Shown here in pieces: positions 572-19,162 of a stretch of 19,162 nt of DNA; position 1 is the stretch's first letter; the number at the start of each line of letters is the position of its first letter. This stretch comes from a virus (Duplodnaviria; Heunggongvirae; Uroviricota; Caudoviricetes): IMG/VR virus record IMGVR_UViG_2734482785_000012, positions 1 to 19,162 of that record; one strand, written 5' to 3'. A model generated the notes under the pieces. That model was given only the letters and a program-made list of their open reading frames with translations. It did no database searches and was not told where the DNA came from. Position numbers and translations under genes: made by a program.

Positions 572-597
572 GGGGCGTTTTTACGCCCCTCTTTTTA
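572..597 (+). terminator. Rho-independent terminator downstream of the porin gene
   Basis: GC stem ggggcg / cgcccc (572-577 / 584-589) with a T-rich loop, followed by tcttttta. Confidence 0.5.
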
Positions 598-621
598 TTC
601 AACTTTGTTAGCTAACGTTAG

Positions 622-1005: not shown

Positions 1006-1247
1006 CAGCGCAACACCTCCTGCACCAGCTTTTCAAACTTTCCAACTCTGGTTTCCAGCTCTGCCACACAGTCCACCAGCTCATCCACCGCTTTTTGTGC
1101 GCGATGTTTCACCTGCATCAGTTCCCTGAGCGCTGGAACCACATCCCGACGAATGGCATCTTTTGTTACACCCGTCTTTTCCAGTTGTTCAGCATGACGC
1201 AACATTTCCTGTGCCTGTTTACGTAATTGCTCAGGGGTAAAAGTCAT
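1005..1247 (-). CDS. Hypothetical small phage protein (about 80 aa, predicted helical/coiled-coil)
   Basis: ORF ends with TGA overlapping the Q start (tgATG). First ATG is at 1247..1245, 12 nt after the helicase stop; the track used an upstream TTG at 1262. No strong SD, so likely translationally coupled. Confidence 0.45.
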
Positions 1248-1258
1248 TGTCTGGTTGT

Positions 1259-3525: not shown

Positions 3526-3535
3526 CGCTGTCACC

Positions 3536-4462: not shown

Positions 4463-4682
4463 ACGGCACCTCCCAGGCGTTTAAACATTTTTCCGGACTG
4501 AAACACCGCCAGAGGGTAACTGATGGTGTAGTTACGCCCCAGTAATTCACACACAACTTTCTGGCTTTCGATACTGACCAGACAAACCCGCAGAACGTGA
4601 CCATTGCTGGTGGTGAACCACTGCCCCACACGGGGCAACGGTTGTATCGGTGATACAGAGAATTCACAACGCGACGAATCAT
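4455..4682 (-). CDS. Hypothetical small protein (75 aa, Trp/Cys-rich)
   Basis: ATG at 4682..4680 preceded by GGAGGTG. Stop overlaps the initiator start by 8 nt. Confidence 0.45.
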   Translation of the reverse strand: MIRRVVNSLYHRYNRCPVWGSGSPPAMVTFCGFVWSVSKARKLCVNYWGVTTPSVTLWRCFSPEKCLNAWEVPCE

Positions 4683-4873
4683 GGACGCACCTCCGCCGTA
4701 GTTACGTATTTAACCGGGCTACCTTTCATTGAGATGGTTTCACACATCTCTGCCGCTTTGCGTTCCGCCGTTTTTCTGGATTTATAGCGGCGGTGCCAGA
4801 CAGATGTATCTGTGCGAACTGATACATCGTTTCTGTATTCCGTTGTGGAAATAATAATTTCGTAACTAATCAT
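4679..4873 (-). CDS. Hypothetical small protein (64 aa)
   Basis: ATG at 4873..4871 preceded by GGGAGG, with near-identical start context to the next gene (tcATGgacgcRcctcc). The track began at an upstream ATG at 4888 that lacks an SD. Confidence 0.4.
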   Translation of the reverse strand: MISYEIIISTTEYRNDVSVRTDTSVWHRRYKSRKTAERKAAEMCETISMKGSPVKYVTTAEVRP

Positions 4874-5232
4874 GGACGCGCCTCCCATTGATTACGGCGG
4901 AAAGCGGTATGACTGAGGCTGTTTTCTGCCTCATGGAATGCTTCAATGCAGCTCTCGTAGTACCGCATTGTGCGCAGACTTAACCCAAGCTGAAGCATCA
5001 TCAGGCCATCAAGGGTGATGTAATAACCACGCAGAGAATCACCATAGATGTGATAAGTGCACGGTATGAAATTGCGGGTAAAAAACTCGCGCGAGCAGTT
5101 CAGATACTCGATTTTGTCGACGATGTTCTGGTGCATGCGCTTAAAGTGGCAGGCAACATGCAGGGAGAAAATAACAGCTTTGCAGTTGACGACTTCGATT
5201 TTGAGGAATGGGGAAGTTGGGACTGTAGCCAT
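4870..5232 (-). CDS. Hypothetical protein (121 aa from the ATG at 5232; the same frame stays open to an ATG at 5532, giving 220 aa)
   Basis: ATG at 5232..5230 is preceded by GGAGG and the codon usage looks coding (TTC, ATC, AAC, GAA). The N-terminal extension 5233-5532 is GC-rich with rare codons, and its start lacks an SD, so the longer model is uncertain. Confidence 0.4.
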   Translation of the reverse strand: MATVPTSPFLKIEVVNCKAVIFSLHVACHFKRMHQNIVDKIEYLNCSREFFTRNFIPCTYHIYGDSLRGYYITLDGLMMLQLGLSLRTMRYYESCIEAFHEAENSLSHTAFRRNQWEARP

Positions 5233-5556
5233 GATGGCAGCCTCCGTATGCAATGGATAACTTCCACCACCGGAGGTTCCAAGCTCGCTGGTGGCGGACT
5301 GAACAGGGTTGGAACGACCGGCGCATACGGAAACCGGCGAGCCTTTCGGCTCCCCTGCCCAGCCCACCATAATTCTGGCGTGCGTGAGCGCGGACGATAA
5401 AAAAGACGCTGGCGCGTCGTATATCGCCGTATGCAATTCCGAGGTTCCAATCCCGGCACCCGCTTTATAAGGTGCGGAGACAGTGTAGCGTCCCGAAATT
5501 GCAGAATCAATATTTAGGCTTGAAACATTCATATGCTTACTGGTATTTTTACTAAC

Positions 5557-5647
5557 GCAAATGTTCTTGGATGTTACTGGCTTACTTCTTTTGTGAAGTT
5601 GCCTTTACTAACGTTGAGCGAGCCGGGTCACTCCCCGGCTTTTTTTC
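5557..5647 (+). ncRNA. Putative short antisense RNA (lambda oop-like arrangement) ending at a plus-strand intrinsic terminator
   Basis: Plus-strand hairpin agccggg-tcactc-cccggct (5621-5640) followed by tttttt (5641-5646); no plus-strand gene ends here. Candidate promoter ttgaaa (5520-5525), 18-bp spacer, tatttt (5544-5549). Predicted RNA of about 90 nt, antisense to the Rha 3' end and the intergenic region. Confidence 0.3.
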
Positions 5648-6395
5648 ACCGCTGCCAACCAATAACCTGAAATAACCCCATTTTCGGGTGATACCAGCGA
5701 GTCCCTCGCGGTTCTACTTCCTCCATAACCCGATAAAAAGCAGCCATAAACGGTTCCACAGCAACAATTGCGCGACGTGACAACAATCCGTCCGGCGTCA
5801 TGAACTCATGTGTGTCTGTAGGAATTTGATAGGCGTTCACCAGATTGCGGCATTTATCATCTGACAAACCGGTTTTCGCTTTCAGTTGGCGATATCCGGC
5901 ATAGCCCTCACGAATGGTGCCCTTTTTGATTTGCTCAACTGTTTCGGCAACGTGGCTGACTTTTTCTTCCACCTGAGTGATCCGTTTCTGCTGACGAACA
6001 GCTTCAAGAGCCATCGCAGCAACCATTTCGATTTCGCTCATTGGTTTACGGATCTGTTCTTCCAGTTCGCGCCAGCGATCTACCAGGCGAGCAGTGAATT
6101 CAGGACAGAGCTGTGCGACGACAATGATGCTGTCGCGCTTACCTTGTTCTCCTTCAAACAGGTAATGCTCATATTGAACTTTAAAACCTAAGTTATTGAT
6201 TCTTTCGGAAACCTCAATTTGAGGAGACCGGACAACGCCACCTTTGGCTAATGTTTCAATAGTGCGTTTCACATTGTCATGACGTTTACCCACCAGCTCT
6301 GCAATTTCAACGCTGGTCATGGATACTTTGCCGTTAAAAATTGCGGTGTTCACTACCATCTCCTTACGGATAAATTCTTTTAAAATTCCGCACAT
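5646..6395 (-). CDS. Phage regulatory protein, Rha family (N-terminal Rha domain plus C-terminal domain of unknown function)
   Basis: Translation contains the Rha-type motif VEIAELVGKRHDNVKRTIETL. True start may be an internal GTG or ATG near 6353-6359, which is preceded by AAGGAG; the ATG at 6395 lacks an SD. Confidence 0.65.
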   Translation of the reverse strand: MCGILKEFIRKEMVVNTAIFNGKVSMTSVEIAELVGKRHDNVKRTIETLAKGGVVRSPQIEVSERINNLGFKVQYEHYLFEGEQGKRDSIIVVAQLCPEFTARLVDRWRELEEQIRKPMSEIEMVAAMALEAVRQQKRITQVEEKVSHVAETVEQIKKGTIREGYAGYRQLKAKTGLSDDKCRNLVNAYQIPTDTHEFMTPDGLLSRRAIVAVEPFMAAFYRVMEEVEPRGTRWYHPKMGLFQVIGWQR

Positions 6396-6472
6396 TCGTA
6401 CTTGTTGGTGTCGAACCTTTCTTCAGTTATCCTTTTGATCCCTATAAACAAAAGAACCAAAGGAGGTTCGAC

Positions 6473-6940
6473 ATGACTTTAAAATCAGTTCACAAGCTGC
6501 TAAAAGAGCATCTTTATACTCTGTATTCGGTTTTGCCTGCGTCCACGAAAGCAATTGAACTTCGAAATCGAACTAGTTGTCGCGCTATTGCTTTAACTTT
6601 TCTTTACCAAGCAATCATGGATTACAAACGCAACCATGCACTGCTAGGCTTATCTTCCCGAGAAACAATCATTCACATGCTTTACGAGGATGCAAAACTT
6701 ACAATTACTGACTTGGAACAAATTCAGCTTTCGCTTGTACTGAAAATTCTTGCTCCCCGTTTTGCGCGAATAGAAGCCAGTGTTTCTCCCGATTTTTCTG
6801 CAATGGTTCAAGACATGACTCAATGGCTTGAAGACAACTCCGAATGGATTTCGAGGTCTCATGAAGCAACTTCAGATCTTCCTGAATTAAAATGGTCAGA
6901 TCTTCCGAACGAGTTGTTTCCACTAACTCTAGGTAAGTAA
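6473..6940 (+). CDS. Hypothetical protein (155 aa)
   Basis: ATG at 6473 preceded by a near-perfect SD, AAAGGAGGT, 7 nt upstream. On the opposite strand to the surrounding early-right operon. Its 3' 236 bp overlap the convergent ORF 6705..7124. Confidence 0.5.
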   Translation: MTLKSVHKLLKEHLYTLYSVLPASTKAIELRNRTSCRAIALTFLYQAIMDYKRNHALLGLSSRETIIHMLYEDAKLTITDLEQIQLSLVLKILAPRFARIEASVSPDFSAMVQDMTQWLEDNSEWISRSHEATSDLPELKWSDLPNELFPLTLGK

Positions 6941-7124
6941 TTTTTTTCGACATATCGTCAAGTACATCTCGTAAACCGTCAGCTAAGGAAGGCAGACGGT
7001 TTACGGCATACCGTAAAGGTCCACCAGAATCCATCTCTTCAGCCGCTTCCGCTAACTCCTTGAGGTAAAGATTTATTTGACGATCAGTCATTCCAGTCGC
7101 ACTAATTTTGATTTTGTTATCCAT
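6705..7124 (-). CDS. Hypothetical protein (139 aa) immediately downstream of cro (cII/YdaT position)
   Basis: ATG at 7124..7122 preceded by GGGAGG. C-terminal part overlaps the plus-strand ORF 6473..6940, so the true 3' end is uncertain. Confidence 0.45.
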   Translation of the reverse strand: MDNKIKISATGMTDRQINLYLKELAEAAEEMDSGGPLRYAVNRLPSLADGLRDVLDDMSKKITYLELVETTRSEDLTILIQEDLKLLHETSKSIRSCLQAIESCLEPLQKNREKHWLLFAQNGEQEFSVQAKAEFVPSQ

Positions 7125-7160
7125 ATTTCCTCCCGCAACCTGCTAAAACAAATCCGTTCA

Positions 7161-7406
7161 TCACTTCTCATCCTCTATATGCGCTAAGCTTGGGTGTGGG
7201 AAAAGTTCTGGTAGATCTGGACGAAATTCATACGCCTGGATCTTTCCGTCGACAGCTGCAACCAATAACGGCACAAATTCGGGTGAAATTTTGTTCTTGC
7301 AGTTAAGCCAATCACAGACTGTTGATTGAGCCTTTCCGCATCGCTTGGCTAAGGCTTGTTGGCTCCCAAGAATCTCAATGGCTTTCTCTATAGCTTTATG
7401 TTTCAT
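7161..7406 (-). CDS. Cro-like HTH regulator (YdaS/Cro family)
   Basis: 81-aa product from the ATG at 7406..7404, preceded by AGGAG. HTH segment LGSQQALAKRCGKAQSTVCDWLN. Divergent from the CI-like gene. The track's longer model starts at 7478. Confidence 0.65.
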   Translation of the reverse strand: MKHKAIEKAIEILGSQQALAKRCGKAQSTVCDWLNCKNKISPEFVPLLVAAVDGKIQAYEFRPDLPELFPHPSLAHIEDEK

Positions 7407-7525
7407 AATCGCATCTCCTATTGACGACATAATATCAATAGGTAATTCGATATTCAACGTTAAACCTAGAAGTTTCATCGGAAAGCCGATAAACTGCCCA
7501 ATATAGAGAGGAGAGGAAGATCACA
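7407..7525. promoter_or_regulatory. Divergent immunity-region promoter/operator (OR-like) between the cro-like and CI-like genes
   Basis: Palindrome cctattga-N10-tcaatagg at 7417-7442. Candidate minus-strand PR: -35 ttgaat (7457..7452), 17-bp spacer, -10 tattat (7434..7429), overlapped by the palindrome. Second palindrome atcgg-aaag-ccgat near 7477-7490. The motif AATAGGTAA recurs at the promoter at 8287-8315. Confidence 0.5.
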
Positions 7526-8218
7526 ATGACATTTTCAGAACGACTTGATTTAGCTATGCGCAACGCAAAATTTACGCAAGGCAGGCTAGCCAAAGAAGTA
7601 GGTATGGCCCAGTCAAGCGTCAATCAATTACTTAACAAAGCCAACGGCTCTAGGAAAACAGTTGAAATAGCAAAAGTTTTGGGCGTTAACCCGGAATGGC
7701 TCGCATCTGGTGTCGGCCCAATGGAAATCGAGACCTCTGCAGACTCACACCAAATACGTAACATTTCAGAAGACAGAGTTACTGATTCGTATGTCGTGGA
7801 TGTTTTAGACATCAGATACAGTTGCGGACCTGGTAGTTATAACTCTGATTTTCCAGACATTGTCAGATCTATAGCGATAGAACCAGGATACGCATCAAGA
7901 GTTTTTGGCGGCAGACCAGCATCAGCAATCAAAGCAATAAACGCCCACGGCGACAGCATGAAAGGCACAATAAACCCTGAGGACTTGGTGTTTGTTGACG
8001 TATCAGTTCGCTCATTTAATGGCGATGGTATATACGCTTTTACATACTCTGGAACATCGCACATCAAAAGGCTTCAAAAAATCAAAGATACCCTAACAGT
8101 GATCTCAGACAATCCAGCTTACAAAGATTGGGCTATCGAACAAGATGACTTCGAGCAACTTCACATTGACGGAAAAGTAATCGTAAGTTGGCCTATGACG
8201 CTACACCGTTTCGCATAA
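7526..8218 (+). CDS. cI: CI-like prophage repressor (N-terminal HTH, C-terminal LexA/S24 peptidase-like autocleavage domain)
   Basis: 230-aa ORF with SD gagaggagagg upstream. HTH segment QGRLAKEVGMAQSSVNQLLN. C-terminal Ser/Lys dyad motifs GDSM and KRL. Confidence 0.85.
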   Translation: MTFSERLDLAMRNAKFTQGRLAKEVGMAQSSVNQLLNKANGSRKTVEIAKVLGVNPEWLASGVGPMEIETSADSHQIRNISEDRVTDSYVVDVLDIRYSCGPGSYNSDFPDIVRSIAIEPGYASRVFGGRPASAIKAINAHGDSMKGTINPEDLVFVDVSVRSFNGDGIYAFTYSGTSHIKRLQKIKDTLTVISDNPAYKDWAIEQDDFEQLHIDGKVIVSWPMTLHRFA

Positions 8219-8240
8219 GCGATAATTATTTAACACCCCG

Positions 8241-8265
8241 CCCACTCCACGAGTGGGTTTTTTTT
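8241..8265 (+). terminator. Rho-independent terminator after the CI-like gene (possibly bidirectional)
   Basis: Stem cccactc / gagtggg with loop cac, followed by tttttttt (8258-8265) and flanked by an A-run on the other side (8266-8274). Confidence 0.65.
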
Positions 8266-8286
8266 GAAAAAAAATCGACAAACCGA

Positions 8287-8315
8287 TTGACACCACAAAT
8301 AGGTAAACCTATTAT
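8287..8315 (+). promoter_or_regulatory. Strong sigma70-type promoter with embedded palindromic operator (PL/OL-like)
   Basis: -35 TTGACA (8287-8292), 17-bp spacer, -10 TATTAT (8310-8315). The spacer and -10 contain the palindrome AATAGGT-AA-ACCTATT (8298-8313). Confidence 0.6.
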
Positions 8316-8364
8316 CATGACATAAGTATCGAACTCACCAAAACAATTATAGAGGATGAGGAAA

Positions 8365-8775
8365 ATGTCATCGTATATGGGGTTACCAACAAATCAACAC
8401 GATGTTCTTGAGAATATTCAACTCTTAGTAGGGGCTGGAGCACTACTGTATAGCAGCAATAACCCAGAGTTAGTTGAACTTGCCAGCTCCATCCTAGCTG
8501 TAACTCAAAAATATAGCCTCGCTGCGTCGCGTTCATGTAAACAAAATTTAGCTATTAATTCACGGAATCGGATTCGTATCCAACGCGAAGCCTGCGGCTT
8601 AACAACCGCCGAACTCGCCAGGCTGCTCGATCTCGATGAAGAAATCATCATCCAGTGGGAGAGCGGAGAGTATGAACCAACTATCAGTATGCTTATCCCG
8701 CTGGCAAATGTTCTTGGTTGCGACCCGATGTGGCTGTTAACCGGTAAACCAACAGCTGAGGATACTTGCGCATGA
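8365..8775 (+). CDS. Helix-turn-helix (XRE/Cro-C1-type) DNA-binding protein, first gene of the early-left transcript
   Basis: C-terminal HTH region GLTTAELARLLDLDEEIIIQWESGEYEPTISMLIPLANVLGCDPMWLLTG. ATG at 8365; the track started at 8356. Stop overlaps the next start (ATGA). Confidence 0.55.
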   Translation: MSSYMGLPTNQHDVLENIQLLVGAGALLYSSNNPELVELASSILAVTQKYSLAASRSCKQNLAINSRNRIRIQREACGLTTAELARLLDLDEEIIIQWESGEYEPTISMLIPLANVLGCDPMWLLTGKPTAEDTCA

Positions 8776-9137
8776 AAAAGTTCGAAAACATAACTGTTCT
8801 CCATGTTGATGAATTTGATTATACAAACCAGGAATTTCTCCCGGAGGTTATAAAAGCAATAGAAGTTGCCGATATAGTGTTTAGAGGAAAGAGAATTGTC
8901 AAAAACAGGCTCGCATGCACTTCAGGAGCAATGACAGAAACAACCTCACAACAAGATGATTATGAAGGCATTTGTCTGGAGCCTGATTCATTTGCGGTAA
9001 ATGTTTATCATTTATTGCATGCAACACAGGTATTACATATGTCCAGTAATCACGAGACAAAAACACTTGGCAGCGAAATTCTGAATTTTGCATGTGAATA
9101 TGCAAAAGCTGCTGCCGAAAAAGAATTAGCACAATAA
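8772..9137 (+). CDS. Hypothetical protein (121 aa), translationally coupled to the HTH gene
   Basis: ATG at 8772 overlaps the upstream TGA. GAGGA lies 9 nt upstream. No motif recognised. Confidence 0.5.
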   Translation: MKKFENITVLHVDEFDYTNQEFLPEVIKAIEVADIVFRGKRIVKNRLACTSGAMTETTSQQDDYEGICLEPDSFAVNVYHLLHATQVLHMSSNHETKTLGSEILNFACEYAKAAAEKELAQ

Positions 9138-9217
9138 CAACAAACATGCCCTGAACGTTTATTACGGTTTTATCGCCGGGGATTGTTACAACCTTTATTC
9201 ATAGAGGGAACTCAGTT

Positions 9218-9331
9218 ATGACTTTCCTGAAAAATAAGGCATCGTATAAAACTGCCTGCCTCATTGCACAACATGGAGATTCTTATCTTCATATAGCCAA
9301 CCTGTATTTGCGCAAAGCATATGGGAGATAA
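9218..9331 (+). CDS. Small ORF (37 aa)
   Basis: ATG at 9218 preceded by agaggg. Stop lies 4 nt before the next start. Too short to judge on composition. Confidence 0.3.
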   Translation: MTFLKNKASYKTACLIAQHGDSYLHIANLYLRKAYGR

Positions 9332-9335
9332 ATAA

Positions 9336-9524
9336 ATGGAAGAAAAACAACAGAACATAACACATGAAAAAGTAAGAGTGTTGCTAACCATTGAAAATGG
9401 GAAAGTAATTTACTCAAAACATCTGTTGGATAATGAATTCGTTGGTTGCATGGATACATTTCTGTGGATGGCAAAAAGAGCTGGCTACACGATTATTCCA
9501 CCAGCAAAGGAGCAAACATTATGA
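9336..9524 (+). CDS. Hypothetical small protein (62 aa)
   Basis: ATG preceded by GGGAGA. Stop overlaps the next start (ATGA at 9521-9524). Confidence 0.45.
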   Translation: MEEKQQNITHEKVRVLLTIENGKVIYSKHLLDNEFVGCMDTFLWMAKRAGYTIIPPAKEQTL

Positions 9525-10102
9525 ATCATTCAGAGTTCCGACCAGTGGTTACGCCACATGGCATAAAAATTGGCAATACAACCATTGATTATGTTGAGGC
9601 CGTACAGCGGCTTAATAATGGTGAATACGATTATCCAAATTCTCACGGTTTAAGAATTATGCAATGTATTGCTGAAGCCGATGATGCCGGATTACTGGGA
9701 CGATTTTCAGTCGATATGAAGGTTGCTCAATGGCGATGGCTGTATGTGACAACATTTATAAATGAAGAGGAAGACAAGAACGGCACTGTTGATATCCCTA
9801 ACGATAATGGAACTACAGCTCGCGCAGTTATTTATAAAGGGAAATATGGTTGTATGGGTATCTACCCAGGATCAATTCGAATTGCCCTGCAAAACCATGT
9901 CGAACGGGGATTTATTGAAAAATATGGCGAAGCTGAAGGCATGGGGCGAGTTCTGTTTCTCTATCAAAAAATGCTCATCGTAGATCCAGGCAATGGCTTC
10001 ATTACCTCTACTATGGGACGCGAAGGACTTGAACTCCTTCTGGATGAAATGATTCACGATCTGAATACTCATGGTATGCCAGAAGCGCCAGTGACACATT
10101 AA
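9521..10102 (+). CDS. Hypothetical protein (193 aa), AT-rich accessory gene
   Basis: ATG at 9521 preceded by AAGGAG (8-nt spacing). The track's longer model starts at 9446. No motif recognised. Confidence 0.55.
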   Translation: MNHSEFRPVVTPHGIKIGNTTIDYVEAVQRLNNGEYDYPNSHGLRIMQCIAEADDAGLLGRFSVDMKVAQWRWLYVTTFINEEEDKNGTVDIPNDNGTTARAVIYKGKYGCMGIYPGSIRIALQNHVERGFIEKYGEAEGMGRVLFLYQKMLIVDPGNGFITSTMGREGLELLLDEMIHDLNTHGMPEAPVTH

Positions 10103-10109
10103 ATATTAA

Positions 10110-10134
10110 GAAGAATATAATTCTTCCGTTTTTT
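10110..10134 (+). terminator. Rho-independent terminator
   Basis: Stem gaagaat / attcttc with loop ata, followed by cgtttttt. Confidence 0.6.
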
Positions 10135-10147
10135 ACTAACCGTTTAT

Positions 10148-10255
10148 ATGAAAAGCAACCGTGAATTAAGCAGAGTAAAACTGCTTTTAATCCTTGCCAC
10201 AGTACTGACACTAACAGAAATCATTATTCTCTTTATTGCGCTGTCAGTCAGTTAA
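10148..10255 (+). CDS. Small hydrophobic peptide (35 aa, single predicted transmembrane helix)
   Basis: Translation MKSNRELSRVKLLLILATVLTLTEIIILFIALSVS. No clear SD, and shorter than the ORF-track cutoff. Confidence 0.3.
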   Translation: MKSNRELSRVKLLLILATVLTLTEIIILFIALSVS

Positions 10256-10278
10256 AAATATCGGGATGCAACAAACCA

Positions 10279-10467
10279 ATGAGATTGTATTTCAGAATAG
10301 TAATTTTACTGGCAATTATCGCATGCATTTACGGACTACTCGTCCCGTTCCTTATATCCATGAAGGATACGGTAGCAGTCATTTCCGGTTTTGCACTGGC
10401 GTTTCTGACCCCGCCCTGCATTTATGCCATTTACAAGGGTCTTTCTTTCACTAAGGATAAAAGATGA
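10279..10467 (+). CDS. Small membrane protein (62 aa, two predicted transmembrane helices)
   Basis: Hydrophobic segments IVILLAIIACIYGLLVPFLI and VAVISGFALAFL. Stop overlaps the start of the SPFH gene (ATGA). Confidence 0.4.
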   Translation: MRLYFRIVILLAIIACIYGLLVPFLISMKDTVAVISGFALAFLTPPCIYAIYKGLSFTKDKR

Positions 10468-11291
10468 AAAAAGTTATTTTTGCTTTAGCCATTGTTCTTC
10501 CGACCATTGGCCTTGTCGGTTGCGATCGCGTTGAACCAGGTAATGTTGGCATTAAGGTAAATAAACTGGGCGACGACAAAGGCGTCGGTGAAGTGGTTGG
10601 CGTTGGCCGCTACTGGACCGGCTGGAATACTGAAGTTTACATCTTCCCGACCTTCAAACAAATGAAGACCTACGATGAACCGTTCAGTTTCCAGATGAGT
10701 GACGGTACAACCATCGGCTATCACATCGGCGTGGCCTACAAGGTTGATCCATCCAAAGTTACCACGGTGTTTCAGACTTACCGCAAAGGCGTGGATGACA
10801 TAACCGATACCGACCTGCGTCAGAAGATCGCCGACGCACTCAACCGACTGGCCAGCAAAATGACCACCGACAAATTTATCGACGGCGGGAAGTCTGAACT
10901 ACTGGATGCAGCTCTTAAAGACATTCAGGAGGAAATGACCCCCATCGGTATTCAGGTAATGAGCCTCTCATATGTGGGTAAGCCGGAGTACCCGTCAACC
11001 GTTATCGACAGCATTAATGCCAAAGTCACGGCGAACCAGAAAACCCTGCAACGCGAACAGGAAGTAAAACAGCGCGAAGCGGAAGCCAACATGTTGCGCG
11101 CGGAAGCTGCCGGACAGGCAGATGCAATTCGCACAAAAGCCCAGGCCGAAGCCGATGCTATTCGTTTACGCGGTGAAGCTCTGCGCCAGAACCCCGGAGT
11201 TATGGAACTGGAAGCCATCAATAAATGGAACGGCATACTGCCGCAATACATGACCAGCGGTGCTAATACACCATTTATCCAGGTTAAATAA
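10464..11291 (+). CDS. SPFH/band-7 (prohibitin/stomatin-like) domain lipoprotein
   Basis: Signal peptide with lipobox LVGC (MKKVIFALAIVLPTIGLVGC). Central SPFH-like domain and a C-terminal Ala/Glu/Gln-rich coiled coil (QREQEVKQREAEANMLRAEAAGQADAIRTKAQAEADAIRLRGEA). SD AAGGA upstream. Confidence 0.75.
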   Translation: MKKVIFALAIVLPTIGLVGCDRVEPGNVGIKVNKLGDDKGVGEVVGVGRYWTGWNTEVYIFPTFKQMKTYDEPFSFQMSDGTTIGYHIGVAYKVDPSKVTTVFQTYRKGVDDITDTDLRQKIADALNRLASKMTTDKFIDGGKSELLDAALKDIQEEMTPIGIQVMSLSYVGKPEYPSTVIDSINAKVTANQKTLQREQEVKQREAEANMLRAEAAGQADAIRTKAQAEADAIRLRGEALRQNPGVMELEAINKWNGILPQYMTSGANTPFIQVK

Positions 11292-11331
11292 CTTATACGC
11301 CCGGCAGGGCGCCGGGCTAAGGAAAGAACAG

Positions 11332-11703
11332 ATGAACACCCAGAATACTCAACAGCAAATAATGAACTATGACCCAAATCTGACGTCGTGCGGACGCATG
11401 GCAAAACAAACCGTTCGATTAACTTTCGGACTATGGGAATACCGCGAAACATTCGAAGTTACTGTCGGTGGCAATCTGACCGGACTGGATGTTATCAGTT
11501 GCGCTATTGAAAGCCTGTACGCAACGCTGCCTTATGAAGAAGTCGAGGATGAGCGCACAGGGGAAACAGATATCATGGCCACCATTAATATTGGCGAACT
11601 GATATGTCAGGATGAAGACCTGTCTGGAGAACTCTGGCTTGCCGGGATGCTTATCTCAGCAGAAATTATCAGTATTGAACCCGCTACAAACATACGGCTC
11701 TGA
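11332..11703 (+). CDS. Hypothetical protein (123 aa)
   Basis: ATG at 11332 preceded by aaggaaag. The track's longer model starts at 11260. Preceded by the GC stem-loop gcccggc-agggc-gccgggc (11299-11317). Confidence 0.5.
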   Translation: MNTQNTQQQIMNYDPNLTSCGRMAKQTVRLTFGLWEYRETFEVTVGGNLTGLDVISCAIESLYATLPYEEVEDERTGETDIMATINIGELICQDEDLSGELWLAGMLISAEIISIEPATNIRL

Positions 11704-11734
11704 AGTTCTCATTATTCAGAGAGCAGGAGAAAAA

Positions 11735-11977
11735 ATGTTCGCTTTGATTAATCAAGGACAACTGTATACCGACAGTGCAGGTTACCCGGTAAAAATTATT
11801 CGCTGCATAAATAACACTGTGTTGTACAGAAGAATGGATGGGCGAACACAGTCGGTAAAACTAAACGATTTTAATGAATTGTTTGAACGGCTCGATCACC
11901 AGGAATACCGACAAATTCTGGCAGAAACAGAACAGGAAACTCATCTGAAGAAATTACGAGCCATGCAAAGGAAGTAA
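11735..11977 (+). CDS. Hypothetical protein (80 aa)
   Basis: ATG at 11735 preceded by gcaggag. The track's longer model starts at 11612. Confidence 0.5.
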   Translation: MFALINQGQLYTDSAGYPVKIIRCINNTVLYRRMDGRTQSVKLNDFNELFERLDHQEYRQILAETEQETHLKKLRAMQRK

Positions 11978-11980
11978 AGA

Positions 11981-12127
11981 ATGAATAAAGCGTTTGAGCT
12001 ATGGGTACGCCAGCGTTACGGCAATCGCTATGACCTGACGCGAGATGTTGACGGTTTCTACTGCCGTGAAATTGTGAAACGAATGTTTGAAGTGTGGTGC
12101 CACTGCCGTGGACTGAATGTTGTGTGA
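11981..12127 (+). CDS. Small ORF (48 aa, Cys/Trp-containing)
   Basis: ATG at 11981 preceded by aggaag, 3 nt after the previous stop. Translation MNKAFELWVRQRYGNRYDLTRDVDGFYCREIVKRMFEVWCHCRGLNVV. Confidence 0.35.
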   Translation: MNKAFELWVRQRYGNRYDLTRDVDGFYCREIVKRMFEVWCHCRGLNVV

Positions 12128-12135
12128 GGTGAACT

Positions 12136-12345
12136 GTGGGGCTGGATTGCGTACCTATATCAACCTACTGCCGCAACGCGGGAGAAACGGTTGATGCCGT
12201 TAACAAACGGATACAAAGAGGAATATGGAAAGAAGGGGTACATGTATTAAAAGTCGACGGGGTTAAAGAACGTTGGGTCGACTTAATGGAGATTACAAAA
12301 TGGGCAAGAAAGAACAAGGATCATTATCTCTCCCCAGAGGAGTAA
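12136..12345 (+). CDS. xis: Excisionase-like DNA-binding protein (Xis position)
   Basis: 69-aa ORF with GTG start preceded by GAGGTG. Winged-helix-like pattern (ETVDAVNKRIQRGIW...VKERWVDLMEITKW). 3' end overlaps the integrase start by 46 nt, as in xis-int pairs. Confidence 0.55.
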   Translation: MGLDCVPISTYCRNAGETVDAVNKRIQRGIWKEGVHVLKVDGVKERWVDLMEITKWARKNKDHYLSPEE

Positions 12346-13472
12346 CTATTCGGCAACATAAAACTGGTAGCACTCTGGTTATCACTTTTACATATAAAGG
12401 GGTTCTGTGTCGGGAGCCCCTCTCCAGAATGGAAGTAAACGCGCGCGGTGTGAAGTACGCCGAGCGTCTGCTGGGAGAAATAAAAAATCAGATTATCGAT
12501 GGTACCTTCGAATATGCAAAATACTTCCCCAACTCCCAAAAGCTGAAGTTGTTCGGGGGAGTGAAAAAAAACAAAAATATAAAATCTTACCTGGATGAAT
12601 ACCTGATTATCTGCCAGAACCGTAACCTGTCACCATCGACAATTAGAGGTTATGAAAAATGCCTGTCGGCGCTGTCAGCATTGCATAAATTTCATGTATC
12701 AGAACTGACACCTGCAGTACTAAAAAACTGGATCGCCAGCAGAAAAACAAAACTGAAAACGATCCGCAATAATCTTTCGTTTCTGCGCAGCGCCATAGAT
12801 GAGGCGGTGACCGATGGTTTGTTAACAATAAATCCTGTCACGCTAGTCAGCGCCAGCCGATATCACGTATTAGACAACACACCAGGCAGTGATGATTACG
12901 AGGTCGATCCTTTTACGCCAGCGGAGACAGCAGCAATCTATGACGCCTGTCATTACCCGGAATGGCGAAATCTATTTCGCTTCGCCTTTAATACCGGGCT
13001 GCGCAGCTCGGAATTGTGCGCATTGCGCTGGACAGATATAGACTTCATCGGCAACACAGCGCATGTCCAGACTGCAAGTGTAGTCGGGGTAATCAAAAGC
13101 ACCAAAACAAAAGCCGGCACTCGCAAAGTACAACTGAACAGCGAAGCGCTGGCAGCTCTTCAGGCACAAAAGCCCTACACGGCGCTAAAAAGCGACTTTA
13201 TATTCAGCGATCCAAAAACTCGCGCCCCTTGGGCAAACGCGGACGCGATCCGAAAAAAAGCCTGGGTGCCGACCCTTAAAAAGGCTGGTGTACGCTATCG
13301 CAATCCGTACCAGACACGCCATACGTTCGCCACTCGGCACATTAGCCAGGGCGTTAACCTGTTCTGGCTTGCTGGTCAGATGGGGCATAAAGGACCGGAA
13401 ATGCTGTTCAGACATTACGGCTCTTACCTTGCAGAATACGATGGAAAAACGGCGATTTCTGCAGCCCCGTAA
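12300..13472 (+). CDS. int: Prophage tyrosine integrase (site-specific recombinase)
   Basis: Catalytic-domain motifs (TGLRSSELCALRW; HTFATRHISQGVNLFWLAGQMGHKGPEMLFRHYGSY with the R..H-x-x-R..Y signature). ATG at 12300; the track used an upstream TTG at 12273. Lies next to the attachment core. Confidence 0.85.
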   Translation: MGKKEQGSLSLPRGVTIRQHKTGSTLVITFTYKGVLCREPLSRMEVNARGVKYAERLLGEIKNQIIDGTFEYAKYFPNSQKLKLFGGVKKNKNIKSYLDEYLIICQNRNLSPSTIRGYEKCLSALSALHKFHVSELTPAVLKNWIASRKTKLKTIRNNLSFLRSAIDEAVTDGLLTINPVTLVSASRYHVLDNTPGSDDYEVDPFTPAETAAIYDACHYPEWRNLFRFAFNTGLRSSELCALRWTDIDFIGNTAHVQTASVVGVIKSTKTKAGTRKVQLNSEALAALQAQKPYTALKSDFIFSDPKTRAPWANADAIRKKAWVPTLKKAGVRYRNPYQTRHTFATRHISQGVNLFWLAGQMGHKGPEMLFRHYGSYLAEYDGKTAISAAP

Positions 13473-13604
13473 CGGCAAAATATTTCAAAATGTTGTACAG
13501 AATCAGGACGTTACAGGGACAGCAATATGTACGTAAAATGCACATAATTCCTTGTTTGAAAAAATAAATCGTTCATATTCAATAAATTGGATTAATCACG
13601 ATCA

Positions 13605-13631
13605 CGGGTTCAACTCCCGCCAGCTCCACCA
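13605..13631 (+). other. ssrA: Attachment-site core: 27 nt matching the 3' end of tmRNA (ssrA); a fragment, not a complete gene
   Basis: cgggttcaactcccgccagctccacca matches the 3' terminus of the E. coli tmRNA as I recall it. Sequence upstream of 13605 diverges from ssrA. Lies between the prophage int and the P4-type integrase. Confidence 0.65.
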
Positions 13632-13796
13632 CTTTTTAGTTGTTTGAAGTTCAATGAAGTCTACTAAGCCCACACAGCACAAGCTCTGCGGGCTTTTTTA
13701 CGTCTATTGTCGTCCAGTGAGAATTGCTGAGAACTACGAGTTATGGCACCCTGAATGGGACCCACTAAGAAGGGTCCAAAAACCGAGGGTCCCAAA

Positions 13797-15026
13797 ATGG
13801 CAAAAATCGCTAAGAAGCTCACTGACACTGAAATCAAAAGCACCAAGCCAGCCGATAAAGAAATCAACTTGTTTGACGGTGATGGTCTGATTCTACGAAT
13901 CGCTCCTTTGGCGAAAGGAGGCAAGAAAAATTGGTATTTCAGGTATGCAGTACCAGTGAGCAAGAAAAGAACCAAAATGAGCCTTGGGACATATCCTCAC
14001 CTTACCCTTGCAAGAGCCAGAGCCTTACGTGATGAATATCTCTCCTTTCTGGCAAATGGTGTTGATCCCCAAATCCATAACAACGATAAGGCGAAGGCAT
14101 TAAAGAGTGCTACTGAGCACACTCTCCAAGCCGTAGCGCGGAAATGGTTAGATGAGAAGGTAAAGACATCAGGTATCTCACAAGACCATGCAGCAGACAT
14201 CTGGCGCAGCTTAGAGAGAAATGTCTTTCCCGGTCTGGGTAATGTCCCTATCAATGAGATCCGACCTAAGCTCTTAAAACAACACCTTGATCCTATTGAG
14301 CAACGAGGCGTATTGGAAACTCTACGCCGTATCATTTCACGTCTGAATGAAATCTTCCGGTGGGCAGCTACTGAAGAACTTATTGAGTTCAACCCGGCTG
14401 ACAACCTTGGTCAAAGATTCAGTAAACCAAAAAAGCAAAATATGCCTGCCCTTCCCCCAAGCGAATTGCCAAGGTTTATGGAATCTTTGACGAATGCGTC
14501 AATCCGGTTGGAAACACGTATGCTAATTGAATGGCAATTGTTGACATGGGTTCGTCCGGGTGAAGCCGTTCGCGCAAGGTGGTCTGATATTGATACAACC
14601 AACAGCATTTGGAACATTCCTGCTGATTTCATGAAAATGAAAAAGCTTCACAAAGTTCCTTTGAGTAAAGAAGCTTTGCGCATCCTTGAATTAATGAAAT
14701 CAATAAGTGGGCATAGAGAATGGGTTTTCCCCAGCATAAAAGCGCCTCTTAATCATATGCATGAACAAACAGCCAACGCAGCTATCATCCGAATGGGGTT
14801 CGGAGGCGAGCTTGTAGCTCACGGTATGCGTTCTATTGCACGAACAGCGGCAGAGGAGTCTGGTAAATTCAGAGCTGAAGTTCTTGAGGCAGCGCTTGCC
14901 CACTCGAAAAAAGATGAAATTATCGCAGCATACAATCGTGCAGAATATCTGATAGAGCGACAGAGTTTGATGCAATGGTGGAGTGATTACGTTCAAGCTC
15001 AAAGATCAAATGCTCTGGTAGCCTAA
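13797..15026 (+). CDS. P4-type (IntA/CP4-57-like) tyrosine integrase
   Basis: N-terminus MAKIAKKLTDTEIKSTKPADKEINLFDGDGLILRIAP is typical of P4-family integrases. Catalytic region has R (VRPGEAVRARW), HGMRS and Y (AAYNRAEY). ATG at 13797; the track's longer model starts at 13755. Lies directly downstream of the tmRNA 3'-end core. Confidence 0.85.
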   Translation: MAKIAKKLTDTEIKSTKPADKEINLFDGDGLILRIAPLAKGGKKNWYFRYAVPVSKKRTKMSLGTYPHLTLARARALRDEYLSFLANGVDPQIHNNDKAKALKSATEHTLQAVARKWLDEKVKTSGISQDHAADIWRSLERNVFPGLGNVPINEIRPKLLKQHLDPIEQRGVLETLRRIISRLNEIFRWAATEELIEFNPADNLGQRFSKPKKQNMPALPPSELPRFMESLTNASIRLETRMLIEWQLLTWVRPGEAVRARWSDIDTTNSIWNIPADFMKMKKLHKVPLSKEALRILELMKSISGHREWVFPSIKAPLNHMHEQTANAAIIRMGFGGELVAHGMRSIARTAAEESGKFRAEVLEAALAHSKKDEIIAAYNRAEYLIERQSLMQWWSDYVQAQRSNALVA

Positions 15027-15064
15027 GTATCAGAATAGCTAATATAATCCTGAAGGTAAAGAAA

Positions 15065-15481
15065 ATGGAAACCCTATTCAAAGTTTTTGAAAAATTTAGT
15101 TCCAGACCACTTTTTTTTATTTTTTTCGGACTCTCACTTTGTGAATTTTTTCAGAAACAATCTGTTCTGATGAATCCATCAGCAGATAACATCGCGAAAT
15201 TATTCGCAGCCATGATATTAGTTGTTTTTTTTACTTGGGGATTTGAATGGCTAATCTTCAAGTTCAATGTAAACCTTGAACCTCATGATCAAGGCGATAT
15301 TGGACCAACAATTGGAACGGCTACTTTAGCTGTATACTTAGTTTATGCCTTTCACTTTCTCAGTGAAAATCCTGAAGCATTAAATTTAAAGTTATTAACT
15401 AACTCTGGCTTTATATACAGCACAACTCTATTATTATTCTCATTAGAATGCATGAAGCTTAGAAGACTTAAACAAAAATAA
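15065..15481 (+). CDS. Hypothetical integral membrane protein (138 aa, 3-4 predicted transmembrane helices)
   Basis: AT-rich. Hydrophobic segments PLFFIFFGLSL, LFAAMILVVFFTWGFEWLIF, TIGTATLAVYLVYAFHFL, FIYSTTLLLFSL. Convergent with the receiver-domain gene. Confidence 0.5.
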   Translation: METLFKVFEKFSSRPLFFIFFGLSLCEFFQKQSVLMNPSADNIAKLFAAMILVVFFTWGFEWLIFKFNVNLEPHDQGDIGPTIGTATLAVYLVYAFHFLSENPEALNLKLLTNSGFIYSTTLLLFSLECMKLRRLKQK

Positions 15482-15552
15482 ACAACATCATTGTGATGAT
15501 AAATATAAAATAGGCATGGCGAAAAAAAATCACCACGCCTAAAATATAATAA

Positions 15553-17301
15553 TTATGGTAGCATCATTGATACATAATCCACACCAATCCTTGAGCTATA
15601 CTGAGACGCTATAGCCTGATATCTTTCTGCATAACCAGTTCTCAGTTGAGATTTAAGTTTGAGTCGGACAGGAACATTTTGCACGTTGCCATCCATATTA
15701 CTTAAAAACACGGCAGAAATAATATTTTTTTCTTCGCCATCAACTGTTGTTCCATGATTCAACACCACCATATAATCAACAACAGGAAGCGTTTTATCCC
15801 CTTCGAAAATAGAGAGATATTTTCTTTGATTTTTATGCATTACATATATATATTTCGAATGTTCAGCAAATGGCAATGCTTTACTCTGACTGGCGTTAAA
15901 AAGCTCCAGAACTTTAATGAGCCTGTGCGGACTTAATCTTACATGGTGAGGGTCGTTACCCTGAGTAGGAACCAAATCACATGCCGCAGATACACATAAA
16001 TACCATTTGTTCGACTCTGTATCAAAGAAAATAGTGCCAGTAGAAATATGACCATCTTCAAAATTCTTTGAAGACAAATTCATATTTAAAGCATGATACA
16101 TTTCGTGATAAGTATCATTATTTGATGGCAGATCCATTTTTGAAGAGCAATATTGGAGCAATGCAGCAACTCCGCTGTTAGCGTATTCATTTGAATAGCT
16201 ATCAAAAACACTTTTGATAAATTCATCCAGCGTATTATTATTTTTAAGTCTTTGATAAAGCTCTTCTGATAAATTACCAAATACAAAGTCAATATTTCTA
16301 CATCTAATATCAGGCGAGTCTGATTTTAATATCTCATTTAACCACGCAGCTTGACCGTAATGATCGTTAGCCAAATGATTTACAAAAGATAAAGCCTCAG
16401 CTTCGATTGCATTCTGAATTTCAGATTTTATTAACTGATAATAAGATGGTTTCCATTCAATGAGAGAATCATTGAGAGTTTGCCAAATCCTATCTCCATC
16501 GTTTTCATGATCATCTTGAACCTTATGAAATAGGGAGACAAAGATATTACCACATTGAATCCATTTTACTCCGCTTTCATCACCCCGAATGACATTGCCA
16601 GATGTGTTGCTAGAAATAATTGCATTTCTAGACACAGCATATTCTGCAATCATTTTTGCAATGAAGTTTTTATCCTTTTGATCCTCCAACACAGCATCAT
16701 CATGTATTAATCTTTTAATTCTTCTACAAGGCTTACTGTCTTTAATATAGGCTATTGTTTCATCTCTTGTGAGAGCTTTATTACCATTATCATTTAAGTT
16801 CGGTAATACAACGTCTTCCCAATAACTTTGGACATCTTCATTATCGTAGTCAATGATCAAGCTGTTGATATCCAGAGCACCTTTGAGAGTCGATGATATC
16901 TGCATCCAAACCGTTTCTAAATTCTCTCTAGTATATATTACAATCATATTTAAATGATCGGAGTCTTTCAAATCTTGTAATAGTTTAAGTGTTTTATCAG
17001 GTGCATTATTATCAAGATGATAATCTACAATAATAAGATCTGATTTTCTAATCCGATCCACATCGAAATTAACAGAACCATTGTCAACATCACAAATCAT
17101 ATTTTTAGATTGAAAAAAGCTCTCAAGAGTAGCGGCTCGTTTAGATGAGTCAATTTTGTTGTAGTCTAAATCAACTTCGTTATTCAACGCCCTGATTGAT
17201 TCAGAATACGTCAGAAAATCGTCATCAATCATGACAACGGAACGAATTGCATTTTCGCAGAAAGTTTTCTGGACAAGAGAATTATAATTTGCCACTGTCA
17301 T
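15553..17301 (-). CDS. Receiver (REC) domain protein with large C-terminal domain of unknown function (about 430 aa)
   Basis: N-terminal REC signature in the correct order and spacing: VVMIDDD (acidic pocket), LIIVDYHL (phospho-acceptor Asp), MIVIYT (conserved Thr), TLKG (Lys). ATG at 17301..17299 preceded by GGAG, 1 nt after the kinase-like gene stop (TAA-T-ATG); the track's model starts at 17319. About 30% GC. Confidence 0.7.
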   Translation of the reverse strand: MTVANYNSLVQKTFCENAIRSVVMIDDDFLTYSESIRALNNEVDLDYNKIDSSKRAATLESFFQSKNMICDVDNGSVNFDVDRIRKSDLIIVDYHLDNNAPDKTLKLLQDLKDSDHLNMIVIYTRENLETVWMQISSTLKGALDINSLIIDYDNEDVQSYWEDVVLPNLNDNGNKALTRDETIAYIKDSKPCRRIKRLIHDDAVLEDQKDKNFIAKMIAEYAVSRNAIISSNTSGNVIRGDESGVKWIQCGNIFVSLFHKVQDDHENDGDRIWQTLNDSLIEWKPSYYQLIKSEIQNAIEAEALSFVNHLANDHYGQAAWLNEILKSDSPDIRCRNIDFVFGNLSEELYQRLKNNNTLDEFIKSVFDSYSNEYANSGVAALLQYCSSKMDLPSNNDTYHEMYHALNMNLSSKNFEDGHISTGTIFFDTESNKWYLCVSAACDLVPTQGNDPHHVRLSPHRLIKVLELFNASQSKALPFAEHSKYIYVMHKNQRKYLSIFEGDKTLPVVDYMVVLNHGTTVDGEEKNIISAVFLSNMDGNVQNVPVRLKLKSQLRTGYAERYQAIASQYSSRIGVDYVSMMLP

Positions 17302-17302
17302 A

Positions 17303-19021
17303 TTAGAACTCCACTCCATTGAACTGGATCACAAAATTAGCGCCATCTTTTATTAAATAGTTATCGCCTTCATCAGGTTCTGAATACCATATTTTATGAT
17401 GTGCAACAGCAAGGTTTTCTCGACATAGATACAGACCTACCCCATGTCCATTTGCTCTTTTGCTATAAAATAGTTCAAATAGTCGCGGGATATCATCGGT
17501 ATCAATTGCCGGACCAGAATTTGCTATGATAACCAAAGAATTCACAAAACCAATCTTTATGAGCCTATTATTTGACAGACTGACCCAATACATTGCATTG
17601 TTGATAATATTAGTAAAAACAGGATAGATCCTTGATGGTATATCTGTTATTGCGATTTGCTTAAACTCTTCACTAAATTCAATAGTTATTCGTTGCCGTT
17701 CGAAACGCTCCCCAAAGAACTTCAGGACATAATCCATGATATTTTTTCCAGTTATTCTCTGCCTGGATTGATAACCTGATATTTTCAAAGGTGATAAGAA
17801 ACGTATTTGTTGAGTAAGCGATCTGTGAGCATTTAACGCCAATGAAAAACCAGGGTGTTCTTTTACAGAAGTAGGAAGAGAGTTTAGTCCTCTGGTTACC
17901 ATAGAATCCATTTCTTCAAGTTCATGAGATATTATCTCAACACTAATACCTAACTGTGCAAGCGCGTTTAAACTTTTAGCTTTTTCTTCAAAATATGAGC
18001 GTTCTTCTTCAGATAATGAGAATGCTGAATCTAAGTTTATACCTTCAAATAATCTATCGAGACCTTTTATTATTGATTGATATTTGAAAGTTAGGGTATC
18101 AACTGACTCAACATATAAACTATCGAGCAAATTAAACACATTTTCAATTTGTGAATCATTATCTATTGAATCAACAACTGATATAGTTTTAGCATAATAA
18201 TCACTTCGATCAACCTTTATTTCATCGGCCCATTTTTTTAAAAGAGAATGTATCTTCTCCTCTATCGTGTTATTAAACTTAGTTAGTTTAGAATTAATAA
18301 TACCTTGATTTTTTTCAAGGTGATTTTTCGCTGACAATGAAGGCTCAAGTTTATTTAATTCAGAATCAAGTTTATTAATTGCTAACTTCATTTGTAGAAT
18401 ATACGCAGAGAACTCATTAAATTTATCTCTGTAGTCTCTATATTTCTCTTCATACATTCCAAGTTTTGGAGGTTTGATAGGCGTTTTAATTTCACTGCGC
18501 AACGCATCTAAGTTTGTAAGATCACTGTCTATAATTTTAAGATAGTTTAAATCTAACGAACCATCAGTTTTATCAAGCTTAGTTTTCAGCCTTTTAACAG
18601 CCTCCAAGGAAGCATCAAGAACTGGTGTCTGATTCTTCAAAGCTTCTGAAAAACTTTTTTGTGTTGATTTTCGAGCTTGTTGTTGAGCAGATTTTCTTAA
18701 CTCTTTTTCACGCTTAACTTGTTCTAAAAGCTCTTTACGGTCATCAGAACGTGAACCAAAAAATCTATCAGCAAGTTCAGTTAACAAATTAGATATAATA
18801 GTTTTCAGTTCTCTTGCAGCCTGGTTTCTTATGAATCCCTCTCTCCCCGACTTATCTTTCAGCTCTTTATTACTGGATTGAGTAATTCCAATATAACCAA
18901 AAATCCTTCTATTAGACCAATAATATCGCCCTGCATTCCATGAACGTCTTTCTTCTATCTGGAAGAAATCATTATCTACTCGACCATAAGGTAATACTCT
19001 CAAGCTATCCCTAAAAATCAT
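17303..19021 (-). CDS. Cytoplasmic histidine-kinase-like protein (HisKA H-box plus GHKL/HATPase_c core) with coiled-coil-rich N-terminal region; reading frame open upstream to 19147
   Basis: H-box ISHELEEMDSM, N-box FTNIINNAMYW, G1 ANSGPAIDTDD, G2 GHGVGLYLC. No hydrophobic transmembrane segments. The frame continues without a stop or start codon from 19021 up to 19147 (…FDLKAKKYAGL before the Met), so the annotated Met may be internal. Confidence 0.7.
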   Translation of the reverse strand: MIFRDSLRVLPYGRVDNDFFQIEERRSWNAGRYYWSNRRIFGYIGITQSSNKELKDKSGREGFIRNQAARELKTIISNLLTELADRFFGSRSDDRKELLEQVKREKELRKSAQQQARKSTQKSFSEALKNQTPVLDASLEAVKRLKTKLDKTDGSLDLNYLKIIDSDLTNLDALRSEIKTPIKPPKLGMYEEKYRDYRDKFNEFSAYILQMKLAINKLDSELNKLEPSLSAKNHLEKNQGIINSKLTKFNNTIEEKIHSLLKKWADEIKVDRSDYYAKTISVVDSIDNDSQIENVFNLLDSLYVESVDTLTFKYQSIIKGLDRLFEGINLDSAFSLSEEERSYFEEKAKSLNALAQLGISVEIISHELEEMDSMVTRGLNSLPTSVKEHPGFSLALNAHRSLTQQIRFLSPLKISGYQSRQRITGKNIMDYVLKFFGERFERQRITIEFSEEFKQIAITDIPSRIYPVFTNIINNAMYWVSLSNNRLIKIGFVNSLVIIANSGPAIDTDDIPRLFELFYSKRANGHGVGLYLCRENLAVAHHKIWYSEPDEGDNYLIKDGANFVIQFNGVEF

Positions 19022-19142
19022 TAGTCCTGCATACTTTTTGGCCTTAAGATCAAAGTGGGAATGTTCACGTTCAGTATGTGATGTATTTTGTGAAAGGAAT
19101 TCAAACGTTCCTATCTGAAGCTCAAATGGGCCGACCCCTGCG

Positions 19143-19162
19143 TGATCCTACCCACGTAATAT
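19143..19162. mobile_element. Probable terminal inverted repeat of an IS3-family insertion sequence (element continues beyond the window)
   Basis: tgatcctacccacgtaatat has the TGATC-TACCCA terminus typical of IS3-type inverted repeats. The first in-frame stop upstream of the kinase-like ORF (cta at 19148-19150) lies inside it. Confidence 0.45.

Follow-up and report, generated by a model that had tools for sequence, protein, structure and literature searches.

Does the kinase-like gene at the end of the viral record IMGVR_UViG_2734482785_000012 (Caudoviricetes) begin where it is annotated and, if not, what became of its beginning? The whole stretch analysed, positions 1 to 19,162 of that record, is here called the window, and the largest minus-strand open reading frame (ORF) at its end runs from 19021 to 17303, where it encodes a 572-amino acid (aa) 'ATP-binding protein'; position 19021 is the first start given for it in the ORF listing. 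Immediately upstream, the window ends in what looked like the terminus of an insertion sequence (IS), and a preliminary description proposed that an element of the IS3 family had interrupted the gene. Comparison with genomes of Escherichia coli and other species leads to a different reading, namely that an IS3-marked deletion left a non-functional, neutrally drifting remnant of a longer gene and its partner, and we put the probability of this explanation as a whole at roughly 0.85.

The frame above the annotated start

Upstream of the Met codon at 19021-19019 the minus strand remains open for 42 sense codons before an in-frame TAG at 19150-19148 closes the frame. Read on that strand, the sequence is ATA TTA CGT GGG TAG, then GAT CAC GCA GGG ... 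GGA CTA, and then the ATG; the 42 codons include no ATG, GTG or TTG, the single near-cognate triplet being one ATA. This codon-by-codon reading agrees to the base with the preliminary description, which also considered the upstream frame protein-like. A database search bears out that impression, as the complete 612-aa open frame is 99% identical over all 612 residues to 988-aa proteins of Salmonella, Klebsiella and Serratia, and of the 42 codons, those from 19141 to 19022, 40 in all, correspond to residues 377-416 of these homologues. The two codons adjoining the TAG, GAT and CAC, and the TAG itself, which lies inside the inverted repeat, are IS3 sequence, and alignment to intact alleles places the boundary between native and IS3 DNA between 19142 and 19143, with an uncertainty of 1 nucleotide (nt) in either direction.

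The native DNA above the annotated start (19022-19142, minus strand) amounts to 40 codons (377-416) of the kinase-like gene and 1 nt more, has no start codon and is identical or nearly identical, from the breakpoint onward, to the intact alleles at two loci, L002 and L005. In the alignment with uninterrupted homologues, which had been recommended as a check, the first native codon is A377, the annotated Met is M417 and the break falls between N376 and A377. The annotated protein (17303-19021, minus strand) corresponds to residues 417-988 of a 988-aa protein (alignment with P0003 and P0006, and Pfam), and the N-terminal truncation that had been suspected is the loss of codons 1-376 (1128 bp), including the N-terminal GHKL ATPase domain. 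Since all but two of the 42 codons have counterparts in residues 377-416 of 99%-identical intact homologues, the open upstream frame is coding sequence deprived of its start and not a chance feature.

Annotation practice would favor a simpler view, in which Met 19021 is the natural start and the frame upstream of it is non-coding and open by chance: over 2000 E. coli sequences have the 572-aa product entered in RefSeq as a normal 'ATP-binding protein', and it is annotated in several other genera too, the proteins of this length outside E. coli including ones from Pectobacterium, Yersinia and Salmonella. Against this stands the codon match just described. In addition, when homologue length was surveyed in species-representative genomes, at loci with enough upstream DNA, 13 of 13 loci from other species encoded proteins of 988-1005 aa and did not start at the counterpart of Met 19021, and the '572-aa' case from Salmonella sits within an open 994-aa frame. 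The codon match, the homologue lengths and the Salmonella frame rule out Met 19021 as the natural start, a view to which we attach negligible likelihood; the 572-aa 'gene' is merely the first ATG in a beheaded frame.

The Salmonella case comes from serovar Bareilly (GCA_009302835.1; L029 3729-6719), in which tblastn aligns residues 1-994 of the intact homologue in one frame without stops. The gene is annotated there from this same internal Met, as 572 aa, leaving 1.25 kb apparently empty after the methylase gene, and this annotation is a mis-called start. We infer that the abundant truncated E. coli protein may have served as the template for such wrong start calls. One further locus with upstream sequence, L016, is a 5.6-kb contig (DAIPZW010000118.1) of the metagenome-assembled genome 'Bacteroidales bacterium CTOTU14813'. 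It holds the truncated E. coli locus again, identical in the gene and with the 42-codon leader in place, and is probably a binning contaminant.

In the intact 988-aa protein, Pfam identifies a HATPase_c_3 domain, a GHKL ATPase of the MORC/MutL type, at residues 28-137, HEF_HK at 772-830 and HATPase_c at 878-969. The window copy retains only the last two, HATPase_c_3 being absent from it and present in the 99%-identical intact alleles. Its HEF_HK domain (PF19191; DHp-like, at ~17780-17956 on the minus strand) scores 26.3 bits against a gathering cut-off of 24.1 and includes the His-acidic H-box ...VEIISHELEEMD..., of the SHELEE form, and its HATPase_c domain (PF02518; ~17363-17638, minus strand) scores 44.7 bits, E = 2.1e-11. 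Sensor kinases of solved structure, for example 3a0t, have catalytic domains that match this C-terminal domain, and a coiled-coil region is also present within the protein encoded by 17303-19021.

IS3 and the sequence beyond it

On the minus strand the last 20 bases of the window are ATATTACGTGGGTAGGATCA, identical at 20 of 20 nt to the end of IS3C of E. coli K-12. The matched end lies downstream of orfB and is the right inverted repeat (IRR) of the element; the terminal 20 nt of the repeat, which begins 5'-TGATC..., occupy 19143-19162 (minus strand), and the window stops inside the element. What had been described as resembling an IS3-type repeat can be named more exactly as the right end of IS3 itself. 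Of 5426 complete E. coli genomes, 561 carry the final 763 bp of the window at an identity of at least 99%, in every case chromosomally, and in 484 complete genomes the exact junction between the kinase gene and IS3 is present and is followed by a full 1258-bp IS3 with orfA and orfB, the transposase genes that had been expected past 19162. In strain E2865, in which the junction likewise continues into a 1258-bp IS3 with the orfA/orfB organization, 2 of 1258 positions differ from IS3C, and the transposase genes, situated past the end of the window, share the minus strand with the truncated gene and point toward it. The E2865 copy (L001 6744-8001) has a TGG to TGA nonsense change in orfB, the copy in O111:H11 8D is also flagged 'internal stop' and a partial or frameshifted flag is attached to two further copies in the sample; in most of the other strains sampled the transposase at this position is intact, and its inactivation is lineage-specific.

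The intact locus defines what is missing. In Serratia and Salmonella, the 99%-identical allele resides in an island integrated next to smpB-ssrA, in which a P4-type integrase gene is followed by a gene for a 138-aa protein, a Response_reg_2 gene, the 988-aa gene and a C5 DNA methylase gene, and then by a relaxase gene and further integrases. In both genera the last 20 bp of the methylase gene are shared with the beginning of the 988-aa gene. Up to the break, the window is arranged likewise (integrase, 138-aa gene, response-regulator-like gene).

Had IS3 simply been inserted, the gene would be split in two, with its N-terminal part beyond the element and a 3-bp target duplication at the ends, and it is true that the gene abuts a genuine IS3 end exactly at the break. 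In E2865, the far side of IS3 is instead native ygaQ, from 1145 bp into that pseudogene, and then glaH-lhgO-gabD. A search for the 3-bp duplication found none, as the bases that flank the element are GCG on the side of the kinase-like gene and AGA on the side of ygaQ (...CTGCG-IS3-AGATAA...). When the methylase gene and the initial 1128 bp of the kinase-like gene from an intact locus were searched against the 5426 E. coli genomes, none gave a match, and the junction between the 5' part of ygaQ and IS3 that would denote an IS3 simply inserted at the ygaQ site is present in none of the E. coli genomes in the collection. The genes that occupy the interval from ssrA to ygaQ in K-12 (CP4-57, ypjA, pinH, ypjBC and ileY) are all absent between the remnant and ygaQ here. 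Simple insertion is ruled out for the 484 genomes that share the junction by the far flank, the flanking bases and the missing 5' part, and as an account of this locus it is scarcely credible; to call the gene 'interrupted', as in the preliminary description, is not correct. Because the far flank is a truncated ygaQ, no target is duplicated, and the 5' part of the gene and the methylase are absent from the E. coli genomes searched, IS3 marks a deletion junction. The lack of a target duplication is expected at a deletion or recombinant junction and is not an argument against the identification of the element as IS3.

The deletion is documented by these comparisons; from them we infer the following course of events. 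The ancestor would have been a mobilizable island at ssrA with a three-gene operon, transcribed from the C5 DNA methylase gene through the gene for the 988-aa protein, with its N-terminal MORC/HgiDII-like GHKL ATPase, coiled coil, HEF_HK phospho-acceptor-like domain and HATPase_c, to the gene for the Response_reg_2 protein. An event associated with IS3, in an ancestor from which a large E. coli clade descends, would have joined codon 377 to the middle of the chromosomal ygaQ, by recombination between two IS3 copies or by an adjacent deletion mediated by an IS3 end. This would have removed the operon promoter, the methylase, the first 376 codons with the whole GHKL module, the rest of the island and the chromosome up to 1145 bp into ygaQ. 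The remnant, a fragment of the kinase-like gene (HK') and the response-regulator-like gene (RR), would have been left without its native promoter and start, and would have drifted neutrally since, with occasional further lesions. In the intact system, it is plausible that the methylase would mark self DNA and the GHKL module would sense the state of the DNA, and that His-Asp phosphotransfer would relay the signal to an effector domain of the receiver protein; methylase and sensor would have been lost together in the deletion, the kind of loss that a cell can survive.

Some genomes have since lost the element. In 70 genomes, mostly labeled O111, IS3 is gone: with 6 bp of the ygaQ flank also lost and 2 bp added, the sequence at the junction is ...CCCCTGCG+CG+CATCTCT (L010 3140-3160, from O111:H8 02-3334). 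In a third form of the junction, found in a single Logan contig (L031 4015-4025), IS3 and ~24 bp of the flank are lost. Both retain the breakpoint on the kinase side (window 19142/19143) to the base and less of ygaQ, and are for that reason derived from the form with IS3. In each, an ATG in frame comes to lie upstream of A377, by 2 or 6 codons (MRAGVG..., MHGGFPAGVG...), which we regard as chance.

A separate IS3 copy is found at ygaQ in E. coli JS316 (L046 3923-6614) and ~20 other genomes. It is independent, has the same orientation, truncates ygaQ 356 bp upstream of the window breakpoint and adjoins a different island with type I restriction-modification genes and IS1; ygaQ has, therefore, been struck by IS3-associated rearrangements more than once. 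The remnant is also present at 100% identity in a record labeled 'DH5alpha' (H119; NZ_CP026085.1 1165190-1168779), which is possibly mislabeled, as K-12 MG1655 has CP4-57, ypjA and ileY at this position.

Polymorphism and expression of the remnant

The 3.6-kb HK'-RR region of the window was compared with that of 17 other E. coli genomes, which were drawn from the low-identity tail of the match list and whose differences may in part be assembly errors. The distinct single-base variants number 33, of which 24 are missense, 7 synonymous and 2 nonsense (R312 to stop in HK' and Q567 to stop in RR). The non-synonymous fraction, 0.79, is that expected under neutrality, the ratio of non-synonymous to synonymous polymorphism (pN/pS) is 0.97, and values of omega of 0.2 or less are rejected (p = 3.5e-5). 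With two indel-rich assemblies removed, the non-synonymous to synonymous count is 22:5. Five distinct indels occur in the response-regulator-like gene, one frameshift being common to three of the sampled genomes, and RefSeq flags the genes as 'frameshifted' or 'internal stop' in several strains. Secondary insertions within the remnant (window-equivalent 15000-19142), each in single strains or small groups, are of IS1, an IS3-family element with an AL1L pseudoknot and ISVsa5 (matches H85/H152, H156, H116 and H105/H160). In contrast to the within-E. coli counts, the window differs from the intact alleles by 7 non-synonymous and 11 synonymous changes (Fisher p = 0.006), and between intact alleles the ratio of non-synonymous to synonymous divergence (dN/dS) is ~0.05, a value obtained for the N-terminal part. 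Polarizing the five amino-acid differences from the intact alleles with an outgroup of 83% identity gave no information, the sites being variable.

The native promoter must sit upstream of the overlapping methylase gene, in the region that was deleted, and is therefore lost. Ahead of Met417 there is only an AGGA, separated from it by 3 nt, and a scan of IS3 and the junction found 3 promoter-like sites where 2.2 were expected, which is chance level. A truncated gene still expressed from the internal ATG, expression from an outward promoter of the IS, and inactivation had all been offered as outcomes; with the promoter and start gone, a weak AGGA and neutral polymorphism, inactivation fits best, and the remnant is most likely non-functional.

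Several observations weigh against this conclusion or limit it, beginning with the composition of the polymorphism sample given above. Both ORFs are intact in the window and in most of the ~560 genomes, and, as intact ORFs at an identity of at least 99.3% are also predicted by neutrality, their state does not exclude function. The transposase genes point at the remnant and the scan of IS3 and the junction revealed no terminator-like site between them, so that transcription reading through from IS3 is possible. The event behind the deletion is, furthermore, not reconstructable: recombination between two IS3 copies and a one-step adjacent deletion are indistinguishable because no intermediate survives in the collection.

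These observations can be assembled into the proposal that the truncated gene is functional, transcribed from the transposase promoter of IS3 by read-through, or from a cryptic outward promoter, and translated from Met417, giving a sensor-less HEF_HK and HATPase_c kinase that acts on an intact partner. Besides the intact ORFs and the co-oriented IS3, such a proposal has in its favor that the kinase-core domains are kept, that IS3 was lost twice independently, leaving an in-frame ATG shortly before the break on both occasions, and that an architecture without HATPase_c_3 ('group 2') occurs in 34 of 222 family members (PMC8011034). It has to contend with the neutral polymorphism and the nonsense, frameshift and IS lesions in several lineages, with the loss of the methylase and the native promoter, with promoter-like sites no more frequent than chance and with the weak Shine-Dalgarno sequence. 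At least one 572-aa 'short form' from elsewhere is, moreover, the mis-called start on an intact 994-aa ORF noted above, making the short architecture in part an artifact of annotation. On balance a functional truncated gene is unlikely. A bolder form of the idea, to which we give still less credence, is that some members of the clade have kept the beheaded kinase core and its receiver partner and express them as a signaling or toxin module that needs neither sensor nor methylase. Expression would then come from IS3 read-through or, in O111 strains, from the new ATG created by loss of IS3, and selection, not drift, would explain why codon 448 of the partner has changed repeatedly and why in-frame ATG fusions arose twice independently. 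A non-functional remnant is, as stated, the reading that we prefer.

The surrounding island and known systems

The partner gene (15553-17301, minus strand) starts 2 bp after the end of the kinase-like gene, is intact and encodes a 582-aa protein with a receiver-like Response_reg_2 domain. Beyond it, on the plus strand, is the gene for the 138-aa hypothetical protein (15065-15481), called as the same gene in L002, L005 and L008 and conserved next to the response-regulator-like gene in intact islands; its product has no match in Pfam, NCBIfam or PADLOC. The tyrosine integrase gene of P4 type that belongs to this ssrA-integrating island (13755-15026, plus strand; the RefSeq start is 13797) has Pfam matches to Arm-DNA-bind_3, Phage_int_M and Phage_integrase, and immediately follows ssrA in Serratia and Salmonella as well as in strains KSC207 and 98207. 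At its left edge the island remnant is bounded by the attachment core, in which the final ~29 nt of ssrA are repeated (13603-13631, plus strand) and match the annotated end of ssrA in KSC207 base for base. Positions 1-13600 are a segment of a lambdoid prophage situated between ssrA and the island remnant, with genes for a DnaB-like helicase, a DnaC/IstB-like loader, Rha and Ash regulators, an S24 repressor, an SPFH protein and an integrase (12273-13472). E2865 has a different prophage at the same place, no more than 81% identical over the integrase region, and KSC207 and 98207 have no prophage there.

The feature at the end of the window is, in sum, a real and ordinary IS-bounded deletion remnant of a known gene family that is experimentally uncharacterized. 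Its value lies mainly in annotation and curation, by providing a corrected gene model, a warning about propagated 572-aa annotations and junctions that serve as clade markers. The remnant is carried by ~1 in 10 complete E. coli genomes, and its junction, a clean marker of the clade, is present in strains labeled O26, O103 and O111 and in E. coli KO11FL. In surveys of defense systems, the E. coli copy should be counted as a dead remnant of an uncharacterized, methylase-linked system and not as a system. A search of PADLOC-DB v2 gave no match for the kinase-like protein and only 15.7 bits (E = 0.0028) for its partner, and so no credible defense system; searches of the literature on MADS and paraMORC defense systems, and on ygaQ with IS3, yielded no description of this locus.

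The family to which the remnant belongs was defined by Bellieny-Rabelo, Pretorius & Moleleki 2021 (PMC8011034), who described HEF_HK (PF19191) and Response_reg_2 (PF19192) as a soluble, two-component-like pair encoded by adjacent genes in 91.6% of loci. On evidence from comparative genomics and bioinformatics only, they found the pair to be enriched beside C5 methylases and other restriction-modification genes and related to paraMORC ATPases, a paraMORC-like GHKL domain, HATPase_c_3, being present in 83% of HEF_HK members (PMC8011034). With HEF_HK, HATPase_c and an adjoining Response_reg_2 gene, the remnant conforms to this system, and the intact alleles have the dominant 'group 1' architecture (HATPase_c_3, HEF_HK and HATPase_c) and overlap an upstream C5 DNA methylase gene. 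The window copy differs in having been deprived of HATPase_c_3 and methylase by deletion: no methylase gene is present in the window or beside the remnant in E. coli. It only mimics 'group 2', and the published counts of that group, which lacks the GHKL domain, may include such remnants.

A second likeness is to restriction enzymes of the BbrUII/HgiDII type, which have an N-terminal GHKL ATPase resembling those of MutL and MORC. In the intact protein, residues 13-138 align with the N-terminal part of the corresponding NCBIfam family, NF050001 (E = 1.5e-13), with a score of 50 bits, far below the family cut-off of 550, and here too the partner is a C5 methylase. The ATPase domain alone is held in common, no nuclease domain having been identified in the intact protein, and this common region is exactly the part that is gone from the window copy.

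The element at the junction agrees with IS3 of E. coli K-12 (IS3 family, IS3 group; the copy IS3C is in DLP12) in the 20 nt within the window, in its length and in the orfA/orfB organization. It differs in joining two unrelated sequences with no flanking target duplication, in the nonsense change in orfB in some lineages (E2865 and O111:H11 8D) and in its loss from the 70 O111 genomes.

Pseudogenes bounded by an IS at a deletion are a general phenomenon in enterobacterial genomes. As in other such cases, a single IS with no target duplication joins sequences that were not contiguous, and the beheaded ORF has been re-annotated from its first internal ATG. This remnant stands apart only in how widely it has spread, to ~10% of complete E. 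coli genomes, and in the later loss of the IS from some of the lineages that carry it.
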